This document shows positions 7,683 through 15,974 of a stretch of DNA of 22,459 nucleotides, piece after piece. The DNA lies in IMG/VR virus record IMGVR_UViG_2531839473_000014; one strand, written 5' to 3'. The notes under the pieces were generated by a model. That model was not told the DNA's origin, searched no databases, and worked only from the letters and a program-made list of their open reading frames with translations. Made by a program: the position numbers and the translations under genes. Each line of letters begins with the position of its first letter. The stretch's first letter is position 1. Origin of the DNA: a virus (lineage: Duplodnaviria > Heunggongvirae > Uroviricota > Caudoviricetes).

Positions 7683-7852
7683 AATGACAGCCTCGATAGT
7701 CAGTTTAAATAACTCACCACCAAGGTTTTCCACGACCATAAGGGTGGTGAGACGTACAGGGGTGGAAATACCGGCGACTACCGAAACCGGCCAGCTTTGC
7801 GGCTGCCCTGCACGCCCCACCATAATCTGAATGTGGCTGTGCATTACGCATA

Positions 7853-7875
7853 AAAAAACCGCCTGAGCGCGGTTA
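7853..7875 (-). terminator. Intrinsic terminator on the minus strand (6-bp stem AACCGC/GCGGTT, 6-nt loop, U7 tract)
   Basis: Plus strand reads AAAAAAACCGCCTGAGCGCGGTT; on the minus strand the hairpin is followed by seven T. Lies in a gene-poor gap upstream of the Rha-like gene. Confidence 0.45.
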
Positions 7876-8319
7876 TGCGCGGTAATCATCATCGGGTTTC
7901 CACGCCCGGCACCCGTTTTATAAGGTGCAGGTGCACTATAATTCCACCCGTTCTGGTTTTCAATAGCTACATTCAACATTTTCTCTCACCTTTCATCACC
8001 GAAGTGAATTTTGTCGATGCGATGCCTGGTGCCTCCAGGTGACGTTAACCAGTTAACAATTAACGCCGGATAATCCACCCATAACACAGATGCTTTTAAC
8101 TGTTCCGCGTGCGCTTAGCCGCATTCACCGCATCACAAAATTCACTTTAAAAAGGGCGGACATCAGCCGAACTTCAAGAAAAAAAATGATGCCGCCAAGA
8201 CTACACACAGCAATGTCGTTATTTACAACCGGAGGCGCACTCCCACCATTTAAATTTCACAGACAAGACAGACTCTTTATGAATATCGGAAGTGCGCCTT
8301 CGTGTTGTATGCCTGTCTT

Positions 8320-14315: not shown

Positions 14316-15074
14316 ATGAGGAACATAATGGCAGGTTTTTTAATATTCCTGTCTTCTGCTGCTTATGCTGATATCAATCTGTATGGTCCTGGTGGCCCGC
14401 ATACAGCCTTGCTTGATGCAGCCAAACTTTATGCCGAAAAAACAGGTATTATAGTGAACGTTCATTACGGCCCACAGAACAAATGGAATGAAGATGCCAA
14501 AAAAAATGCAGATATCTTGTTTGGCGCATCAGAACAATCTGCTCTGGCTATCATTCGGGACCATAAAGACAGCTTCAGTGAAAAAGATATTCAGCCTCTT
14601 TATCTGCGAAAAAGTATTTTATTGGTAAAGAAAGGTAATCCTAAAAATATCCGGAGTATTGACGACCTGACCAGACCCGGGATTGGCGTAATTGTTAATG
14701 ATGGTGGTGGTACCAGTAATACATCAGGCACTGGCGTCTGGGAAGATATTGCCGGACGTAAAGGGAATATAGAAACTGTCGCCGCAATCCGAAAAAATAT
14801 TATTTTATATGCGCCCAACAGCGGAACTGCACGTAAGGCTCTTGAGAATCAGCCTGAAGCAGATGTCTGGATAACCTGGGCTGACTGGGCAGCCAGTAAT
14901 CCAGAAATTGGTGATGTCGTGGAAATAGCGCCAGACTACGTGATATGGCGTGATATGAACATTACAGTACGTCAGGATGCAAATGATGAAACCCGTCGAT
15001 TTGCAGAATGGCTACAAACCGATGAAGCGGCGCCTGCATTCAAAAAATATGGCTGGACCAGGAAAGGCACTTGA
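14316..15074 (+). CDS. Periplasmic substrate-binding protein, ModA/TupA-like type 2 fold, 252 aa, orphan (no transporter partners)
   Basis: AAAAGGAG SD; Sec signal peptide MRNIMAGFLIFLSSAAYA then DINLY; overall layout and C-terminal FKKYGWT resemble ModA (FKRYGFT, recalled). AT-rich compared with the flanking phage genes. Confidence 0.75.
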   Translation: MRNIMAGFLIFLSSAAYADINLYGPGGPHTALLDAAKLYAEKTGIIVNVHYGPQNKWNEDAKKNADILFGASEQSALAIIRDHKDSFSEKDIQPLYLRKSILLVKKGNPKNIRSIDDLTRPGIGVIVNDGGGTSNTSGTGVWEDIAGRKGNIETVAAIRKNIILYAPNSGTARKALENQPEADVWITWADWAASNPEIGDVVEIAPDYVIWRDMNITVRQDANDETRRFAEWLQTDEAAPAFKKYGWTRKGT

Positions 15075-15109: not shown

Positions 15110-15337
15110 CCGGATGCCGCGCCAGCGGCATGTAGGGGCAGCTCACAAAACGGAAAAAATTGTACGCTAAGCCTCGCCAGGTGAACTGAATTCATTCCGA
15201 TATGGGAATTCCCATATCGGGCGAAAACGGTTTGCTGTAACGGCAGAGTTAAGTAGAATTGCTGCGGGTGCTTGAGGCTATCTGCCTCGTGTTTAACTGT
15301 CCAACTTTTTGGGGTCAGTACAAAGTGAGGCCCCTAT

Positions 15338-15550
15338 ATGCTCGTCACATATAGATTGCCTCTTACGGACCGAAAGGTCAAGGAGAAGCAGGCTATGAAG
15401 CAGCAAAAGGCGATGCTAATCGCCCTGATCGTCATCTGTTTAACCGTCATAGTGACGGCACTGGTAACAAGGAAAGACCTCTGCGAGGTACGAATCCGAA
15501 CCGGCCAGACGGAGGTCGCTGTCTTCACAGCTTACGAACCTGAGGAGTAA
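15338..15550 (+). CDS. mok: Mok-like overlapping reading frame of the hok locus, 70 aa
   Basis: ORF begins upstream of hok and reads through it in the same frame, as in hok/mok loci; whether it is translated here is not known. Confidence 0.45.
   Translation: MLVTYRLPLTDRKVKEKQAMKQQKAMLIALIVICLTVIVTALVTRKDLCEVRIRTGQTEVAVFTAYEPEE
15395..15550 (+). CDS. hokD: Hok/Gef-family membrane toxin (type I toxin-antitoxin), 51 aa, HokD/RelF-like
   Basis: Translation MKQQKAMLIALIVICLTVIVTALVTRKDLCEVRIRTGQTEVAVFTAYEPEE; AAGGAG SD; single transmembrane helix plus conserved C-terminal tail. Confidence 0.85.
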   Translation: MKQQKAMLIALIVICLTVIVTALVTRKDLCEVRIRTGQTEVAVFTAYEPEE

Positions 15551-15618
15551 GAGACCAGGCGGGGGAGAAATCCCTCGCCACCTCTGATGTGTCAGGCATC
15601 CTCAACGCACCCGCACTT

Positions 15619-15641
15619 AACCCGCTTCGGCGGGTTTTTTG
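15619..15641 (+). terminator. Intrinsic terminator at the 3' end of the hok mRNA
   Basis: AACCCGC-TTCG-GCGGGTT followed by TTTTTT. Confidence 0.6.
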
Positions 15642-15800
15642 TTGTGCAGCGTAGTTGATTAGCTTTTTGTGTACTCCTTTGGTTGTGGTTCTTGAGGGGC
15701 CGTTTGGAGTAAATAGAATCATATTGCTTAGTTAGCGCGCAGGGAGAAGAGGGATGGACCCCAAACAGGGGAATGCTAATTATCCGGAAGGATTCTGCTG

Positions 15801-15974
15801 ATGAAAATCGAAGAATTGCGTGAAATTTTTAGTGAAAATGGCCTCTATGCTGTGCGCGTTGAGAATGGGGAAGTTGTCTACGCAACGTTAATTCCTGATG
15901 ATCATGTAATTTTATCTATCGAGGCATTCATTGAATACCTGGAAAGGCTCGGTTTCAAGGTGGTTCGGGAATGA
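15801..15974 (+). CDS. Hypothetical small protein, 57 aa (below the ORF-track cutoff)
   Basis: Hand-translated MKIEELREIFSENGLYAVRVENGEVVYATLIPDDHVILSIEAFIEYLERLGFKVVRE; GGAAGGA SD 8 nt upstream; lies between hok and the YbcN-like gene. Confidence 0.35.
   Translation: MKIEELREIFSENGLYAVRVENGEVVYATLIPDDHVILSIEAFIEYLERLGFKVVRE

Follow-up and report, generated by a model that had tools for sequence, protein, structure and literature searches.

The hok locus and its surroundings

The DNA analysed here, referred to as the window, is the 22,459-nt IMG/VR record IMGVR_UViG_2531839473_000014. It is a Rac-like lambdoid prophage integrated beside ttcA in E. coli, and it is 100% identical to the genome of strain RM9088 over the queried region. 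A hok/mok locus occupies positions 15232-15641 on the plus strand, complete with promoter, tac and fbi ends, and terminator (Table 1). In the identical genome, PGAP names the gene hokD and gives its product as "type I toxin-antitoxin system toxin HokD". An earlier reading of the letters (the original prediction) had described a HokD/RelF-type toxin with an overlapping mok frame and a terminator, and had seen no relBE-like genes beside it. All four of these points were borne out. The Hok protein matches the Pfam family HOK_GEF (PF01848) with an E-value of 1.2e-23 (82.9 bits against a cut-off of 22), and 51 of its 51 residues are identical to K-12 HokD/RelF. The mok ORF is in frame with hok, and the 7-bp stem of the terminator is followed by a T-run. 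No RelE or RelB homologue is annotated around hok in the identical genome region, where the upstream gene is paa and a DUF1367/DUF1364/Q-type block lies downstream. The gene order of the Qin relBE-hokD (relBEF) operon, with hokD as the third gene, is therefore not found at this locus.

Mok consists of Hok with a 19-aa N-terminal extension, and the mok and hok starts are 57 nt apart in one frame, as in mokW. In Rac_442_2 the two starts are 58 nt apart and the frames differ. The 1-nt indels that shift mok relative to hok sit in the sok -10/spacer region. In the hok system of plasmid R1, mok is out of frame with hok.

The motif at 15232-15259 is probably the hok promoter, judging by its position. 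Conservation of its -10 and the bases around it (TTAAGTAGAATTGCTGC) extends to hokW, Rac_442_2 and the short-leader relatives described below. The -35 is not conserved, reading TTGCGG in hokW and being absent in Rac_442_2. The predicted full-length mRNA folds with a minimum free energy of -152.7 kcal/mol (z = -5.17), and this fold includes the 5'-3' pairing of tac with fbi, both of which were defined according to the standard hok model (PMC9841398).

Some smaller observations concern the toxin gene and its transcript. Codon 47 of hok is TAC followed by G (15533-15536), which is the TACG context of A-to-I mRNA editing by TadA and would recode tyrosine to cysteine if edited. This recoding has been reported for hokB and mentioned for hokC, hokD and hokE (bioRxiv 10.1101/2025.08.07.668861). 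The hok 3' UTR (15559-15640, plus strand) matches the Rfam isrK model at 30.5 bits, under the threshold of 50, and the hok 3' UTR of Rac_442_2 scores 33.2 bits. We treated these and the other sub-threshold Rfam matches in the 3' UTR (rsmX and others) as chance or terminator-driven. A perfect 24-nt palindrome with a central EcoRI site (CCGATATGGGAATTCCCATATCGG) lies at 15193-15216, 16 nt upstream of the hok -35, and is also present in the intact paa-linked relatives.

Table 1. Positions of the hok/mok locus elements, the sok remnant and the IS150 scar in the window
Feature	Position	Strand	Details and basis
paa (AcfC-family adhesin)	14316-15074		Upstream neighbour of the hok locus
Putative hok promoter	15232-15259	+	-35 TTGCTG 15232-15237, 16-nt spacer, -10 TAGAAT 15254-15259; read from the sequence
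Predicted full-length hok mRNA, 376 nt	15266-15641	+	Start of the Rfam sok/hok-leader model at 15266; fold; terminator
tac, GGGTGCTTGAGG	15266-15277	+	Paired with fbi in the MFE fold
Predicted 5' metastable hairpin, GAGGC-TATCT-GCCTC	15274-15288	+	3' arm CCTC 15285-15288
TGCCTCG microhomology, deletion junction	15283-15289	+	Common to the hok tac hairpin and IS150 nt 1404-1410
IS150 right-end remnant	15290-15322	+	Last 33 nt of 1443 bp; 40 nt including the shared TGCCTCG (15283-15322)
AAG, probable surviving copy of the 3-bp IS150 target-site duplication	15323-15325	+	Position matches the 214-4 insertion
Sok remnant, first 24 nt, GACGAGCAUAUAGGGGCCUCACUU	15346 to 15323	-	5' recognition tail and 5' arm of the lost terminator hairpin
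mok Shine-Dalgarno (SD), GAGG	15327-15330	+	Alignment with the mokW SD
mok ORF, 70 aa	15338-15550	+	Same arrangement as annotated mokW/hokW (AP000422)
sok promoter homologue	15381-15353	-	-35 TTGACC 15381-15376, 17-nt spacer, -10 CAATCT 15358-15353
hok (hokD) toxin ORF, 51 aa	15395-15550	+	Pfam PF01848; identity with K-12 HokD
fbi, CCTCAACGCACCC	15600-15612	+	Complementary to tac and paired with it in the MFE fold
Intrinsic terminator of the hok mRNA	15619-15636 plus T-run, to 15642	+	7-bp stem with 5 GC pairs

Comparison with intact hok/sok loci

We compared the locus with four intact relatives, which have two types of leader, a long one (hokW, Rac_442_2) and a short one (CFSAN004176, PPompW). 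In both types the antisense strand folds as a 5' tail, a long hairpin and a UUUU tail. The hokW-sokW locus of Sakai prophage 5 (phage VT2-Sakai, AP000422) is likewise carried by a lambdoid prophage. It resembles the window in the -10 region of the hok promoter, tac, fbi, the hok SD, the in-frame mok and the register of the sok promoter, and its hok coding region and 3' UTR are nearly identical. AP000422 annotates a 71-nt SokW, and the original prediction that loci of this type normally carry a short cis-antisense RNA is correct for intact members, in which Sok starts 9 nt into mok (sokW, AP000422; PMC8621323). SokW transcribed from its own promoter neutralises HokW, and mutation of its -10 abolishes the protection (Takada et al. 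2021, PMC8621323). This -10, deduced from the primers in the same study, is TAACCT on the minus strand, compared with CAATCT in the window. HokW of Sp5 is made upon prophage induction (PMC8621323). The distance from the tac hairpin to the mok ATG is 92 nt in hokW but 49 nt in the window (15289-15337), of which 33 nt belong to IS150. The ucb element and the SokW RNA with its long hairpin and U-tail are present in hokW and missing from the window.

The intact short-leader hokD-type locus (E. coli CFSAN004176, and prophage PPompW of O157 strains) has paa upstream and rem/DUF1367 downstream, as in the window, and is identical to the window on each side of the scar described below, including the sok promoter, mok and hok. 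It keeps the segment GGCATGAAC...GGCAGATAGATAAAAGCCCCACCCGACTATAAATCG, which holds ucb and a Sok of approximately 50 nt with the terminator GCCUCAC...GUGGGGC-UUUUAUCU, and which the window lacks. At position 15257, the hok -10 is TAGAAT in the window, hokW and Rac_442_2, whereas the intact short-leader relatives beside paa have TAGGAT; the hok promoter of the scarred allele is thus the better of the two.

The hokD (relF) gene of Qin in K-12 encodes the same 51-aa toxin and has the same 3' UTR with fbi and terminator, and the downstream order rem/ydfU (DUF1367)/Q is shared with the window. However, its homology to the window begins only at the hok SD, and relBE replaces the promoter, tac, the mok start and the sok promoter. 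The window keeps all of these and has instead lost ucb and the 3' half of sok. The hok/sok (parB) system of plasmid R1 has tac, fbi, mok, hok and a sok promoter inside mok, in principle as in the window, but it switches by means of ucb and dcb (PMC9841398), and the window has no ucb. R1 Hok is only ~44% identical to HokW-type toxins (PMC8621323).

A remnant of IS150 in the hok leader

Alignment with the four relatives showed that the window departs from the short leader type exactly between 15289 and 15323. A BLAST search with this stretch found IS150 ends in thousands of records, the K-12 copy among them, and the match covers window positions 15278-15324. The last 40 nt of the element are identical (40/40) between the window and the IS150 copies of K-12 and strain 214-4, and the terminal inverted-repeat sequence ending in ...CA is present. 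A complete IS150 has both ends and a frameshifted transposase within 1443 bp. The window has the right end only, with 1410 bp gone, and therefore holds a remnant rather than a mobile element.

Strain 214-4 carries a complete 1443-bp IS150, identical to the K-12 copy, in a hokD-type leader at the same site and in the same orientation. It is flanked by AAG on each side (...TAAATCG AAG, then IS150, then AAG TGAGGCC). An IMG/VR contig also has the full 1443-bp element with AAG duplications at the same leader position and in the same orientation. In the window the AAG to the right of the remnant is present and the left copy is deleted, and the junction reads ...GAGGCTATCTGCCTCG, then TGTTTAACTGTCCAACTTTTTGGGGTCAGTACA, then AAG TGAGGCC. 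IS150 has ...CTATATGCCTCG immediately before its last 33 nt, so the TGCCTCG motif is common to the hok 5' hairpin and to IS150.

We modelled this history in silico by placing IS150 into an intact short-leader relative at AAG with a 3-bp duplication, and then removing the 1464 bp between the first and the last TGCCTCG. The product is the same as window positions 15200-15645 except for three SNPs (15257, 15416 and 15469), none of which lies in or near the scar. Of the 1464 bp removed in this model, 1410 belong to IS150 and 54 to the hok leader. The lost 54 nt hold GGCAGATAG, ucb (AAAAGCCCCAC) and the DNA for the 3' arm of the Sok hairpin and its U-tract, and the insertion point falls inside the Sok hairpin (Sok ...CACUU^CGAUU...).

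Among 5426 complete E. coli genomes, none carried a whole IS150 in a leader that otherwise matched the window, as a direct progenitor would. The IMG/VR contig that matches the left junction (L014) carries a 214-4-type allele, in which the 5' region of mok differs and the hairpin reads TGTCTCA, and it is not the progenitor. The exact scarred allele is present in 2 of the 5426 genomes, RM9088 (crow, USA) and OkiPb01695 (cattle, Japan), in the same prophage context. Two IMG/VR contigs also carry it and are identical over 15200-15660. Two other explanations of the leader were discarded. The first, simple deletions in comparison with hokW, gave way to the IS150 scar. The second was a small inversion of the AAAAGCCCC/TTTTTGGGG segment, which is a complement rather than a reverse complement and is derived from IS150.

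The remains of sok

No canonical Sok gene was found in the window. The Sok RNA of plasmid R1 is 64 nt long. The original prediction had expected an antisense RNA of about 60 nt that only needed to be located; instead, sok is cut by the IS150 scar, and what is left is the promoter homologue and 24 nt. A short Sok RNA comprises a 5' tail, a stable hairpin and a U-tract terminator, and the window retains the 5' part alone. The start of this remnant at 15346 was placed by register with the annotated sokW start. Sok would not be locatable because IS150 landed in sok and was then mostly deleted.

The sok promoter homologue is in exact register with that of sokW (TTGCCT-17-TAACCT) and is identical in the intact short-leader relatives. 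Its CAATCT element agrees with the -10 consensus at 2 of 6 positions and does not have the T at -12, but the two matches are at the most important positions (A at position 2 and T at position 6). Other minus-strand -10 candidates (TATATG etc.) have no acceptable -35 at 16-18 nt and were set aside. Generic promoter and terminator scans of the minus strand returned nothing, and the same scans miss the validated promoter and terminator of sokW, so these negatives carry no weight and the homology register was used instead.

On the minus strand, the stretch running from 15346 to at least 15252 has no hairpin followed by a U-tract, and none was seen by eye on to approximately 15050. The first 95 nt of the antisense contain no run of four or more U residues, and shuffled sequences fold as well as the 107 nt that lie downstream of 15346 (z = -0.35). 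Any antisense transcript from the surviving, weakened promoter would thus probably be a read-through RNA with an undefined 3' end, covering the IS150 remnant and then the hok promoter. The Rfam model of the hok leader and sok (RF01794) scores 37.9 bits in the window, under its gathering threshold of 59. The four intact relatives score 103.9-113.5 bits (103.9 for the short-leader intact locus), and the IS150-split locus of 214-4 gives 82.6 and 45.4 bits, one score for each half.

Predicted folding of a hok leader without ucb

In the standard model, ucb masks the mok SD as long as the mRNA is full-length; after processing it pairs with tac instead, which opens the mRNA (PMC9841398). ViennaRNA reproduced this textbook switch for the intact relatives: the full-length RNA had tac paired with fbi and ucb paired with the mok SD, and the 3'-truncated RNA had a tac/ucb stem with the SD paired to dcb. 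The window has no ucb, since the relatives' AAAAGCCCCAC segment falls within the deleted 54 nt, and no tac/ucb stem was predicted for it. Its mok SD is predicted to pair with CCUC at 15285-15288, with a probability of 0.99 in the full-length RNA and 0.81 in the truncated RNA. These folds suggest that the hok mRNA is unable to make the tac/ucb switch and that the mok SD would stay on CCUC in both forms, which may be why carriers tolerate a hok gene that has no Sok.

A locked, silent hok mRNA is plausible on these models because single substitutions that weaken the tac/ucb stem abolish the toxicity of R1 hok (PMC9841398). Loss of ucb could also act in the opposite direction and open the mok SD, as ucb is an anti-SD too. 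Thermodynamic folds cannot separate active from inactive forms, and folding alone cannot decide between locking and opening. The unpaired probability of the mok SD was rejected as a proxy for activity, as an intact relative, folded into its predicted active form, likewise has an SD that is mostly paired, in that case with dcb.

Proposed history and status of the locus

We consider it likely, with a probability of roughly 80%, that a prophage-borne hokD-type hok/mok/sok locus was hit by IS150 and then suffered a deletion, and that it is no longer a canonical hok/Sok module. On the sequence evidence, IS150 inserted 1 nt upstream of the mok SD (3 nt counting AAG), at a point within the sequence that specifies the Sok terminator hairpin. 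TGCCTCG then occurred twice, in the hok 5' hairpin and 33 nt from the right end of IS150, and a deletion of 1464 bp between the two copies made the hok promoter, tac hairpin, mok, hok, fbi and terminator contiguous again. The same deletion reduced sok to its promoter and first 24 nt, without hairpin or terminator, and removed ucb. We infer that canonical hok/Sok function has been lost, and the locus is best seen as a decayed module. The original prediction had named a nonfunctional hok leader, or the lack of an antisense promoter or transcript, as signs of a decayed locus; decay agrees with what we found, but an antisense promoter homologue is still there. Two points speak against full decay: hok has an undamaged ORF whose product is identical to a known toxin, and a longer antisense RNA from the surviving promoter, with its 5' recognition tail, could still neutralise the hok mRNA.

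The latter point can be extended to a type I pair that still works, with the sok promoter driving a longer antisense RNA that is Rho-terminated or reads through. Such an RNA would keep the 5' tail and full complementarity to the 80-nt hok leader, and could act through RNase III cleavage or by interference with the hok promoter. The TTGACC/17 nt/CAATCT promoter in register with the validated sokW promoter (PMC8621323) and identical in intact relatives, the intact first 24 nt of Sok including the single-stranded tail, and the viability of carriers despite an intact hok promoter and ORF are all consistent with a working pair. We nevertheless regard it as doubtful: the minus strand has no hairpin with a U-tract between 15346 and at least 15252, nor by eye to approximately 15050, the sok -10 matches only two of six consensus positions and has no T at -12, the Rfam sok model remains under threshold, and the Sok RNAs of R1 and sokW depend on being short, structured and abundant. 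A different possibility, which we consider quite unlikely, is that hok has become independent of Sok. The chimeric hok/IS150 leader would supply a new anti-SD that keeps mok and hok closed in cis and the antitoxin-free toxin silent. The toxin might still be released in particular circumstances, for instance on prophage induction or 3' processing. Intact tac and fbi elements fit this picture, as do the predicted pairing of the mok SD with CCUC 15285-15288 or with the IS150-derived GGGGUC 15311-15316 in both full-length and truncated RNA, and the production of HokW of Sp5 on prophage induction (PMC8621323). However, the closed leader is a prediction, no known trigger would open it without ucb, and the allele is rare (2/5426 genomes), with no sign of selection for it. 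An equally speculative, related reading is that IS150 prefers Sok-hairpin DNA and has recurrently disarmed hok/sok paralogues in a site-specific manner across E. coli.

The scar might also have been imported by recombination with a hok locus that was already scarred, such as the common hokA allele with its 124-nt IS150 remnant. That allele is 96.9% identical to window positions 15278-15341, including the AAGTGAGGCCCC flank, and several hok paralogues coexist in each genome (a median of three matching places). Import is very unlikely, however, as the left junction of the hokA scar differs (the hokA promoter region is joined to IS150 at approximately nt 1320, without tac), the window junction sits in a hokD-type tac hairpin, and both flanks of the scar are of the hokD short-leader type with no mismatch.

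Insertion and deletion within the hokD-type locus itself, our preferred reading, has consequences mainly for annotation. The PGAP label "toxin HokD" hides the deletion of an antitoxin gene and one regulatory element, and for that reason the locus should not be counted as an intact toxin-antitoxin module in surveys of prophages or toxin-antitoxin systems. The allele is a natural mutant whose hok mRNA has tac and fbi but no ucb or Sok, and so bears on the two opposite roles given to ucb. The understanding of hok/sok is unchanged.

IS150 at other hok loci

IS150 insertion into hok/sok is a known class of event, and E. coli B lines under experimental evolution have repeatedly acquired such insertions in the regulatory regions of hok/sok (PMC5419217). 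We found no description of the present allele, a prophage-borne case to set beside the other hok leaders that IS150 has repeatedly hit at one spot. In four other settings, too, IS150 ends lie within 1-3 nt of the same leader position, just upstream of the mok SD. These are K-12 hokA, a widespread hokA scar allele, the hok locus between ybdK and entD, and sites beside plasmid mok genes. An IS150 end abutting AAGTGAGGCCCC-type sequence was found in 872 of the 5426 genomes. IS150 seems to have a strong insertion hot spot in the DNA that encodes the Sok terminator hairpin. IS150 ends near the mok SD were seen in at least four hok paralogues (prophage hokD-type, hokA in both orientations, and ybdK-entD; loci L006, L007, L008 and L009).

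Where IS150-interrupted hok loci bear scars, these arose, as in the window, by short-homology deletions. K-12 hokA has an entire IS150 in the orientation opposite to that of the window remnant. In the common hokA scar, the hok promoter and tac are gone, whereas the deletion in the window re-joined the promoter and tac to mok and hok.

Other features of the prophage

Downstream of hok, a 57-aa ORF (15801-15974, plus strand) occupies the place where relatives have rem. A Pfam search with this ORF gave no match, and PGAP annotates a short incomplete pseudogene at the site in the identical genome (L002, 16602-16679).

A full-length RalA antitoxin sRNA of Rac was identified with Rfam at 1557-1735 on the plus strand (224.5 bits), and ralR is annotated in the identical genome. 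This makes RalA/ralR a second type I toxin-antitoxin pair in the same prophage, apparently intact. On the minus strand, at 7740-7928, Rfam matched a C4 antisense RNA (73.1 bits) followed directly by the Hfq-binding RNA isrK (62.7 bits). This is a P1/P7-type c4/ant-like immunity element in a Rac-like prophage and lies near a gene for a Rha-family regulator.

Two toxin cassettes surround the prophage lysis genes, at approximately 17850-19070 and 20420-21560 of the window (PGAP; 18651-19869 and 21223-22363 of L002). One cassette encodes a scabin-related ADP-ribosyltransferase and a subtilase-family AB5 B subunit, and the other is a gene pair annotated as "enterotoxin A family" and "enterotoxin". 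This arrangement resembles the reported LT-II-encoding lambdoid prophages.
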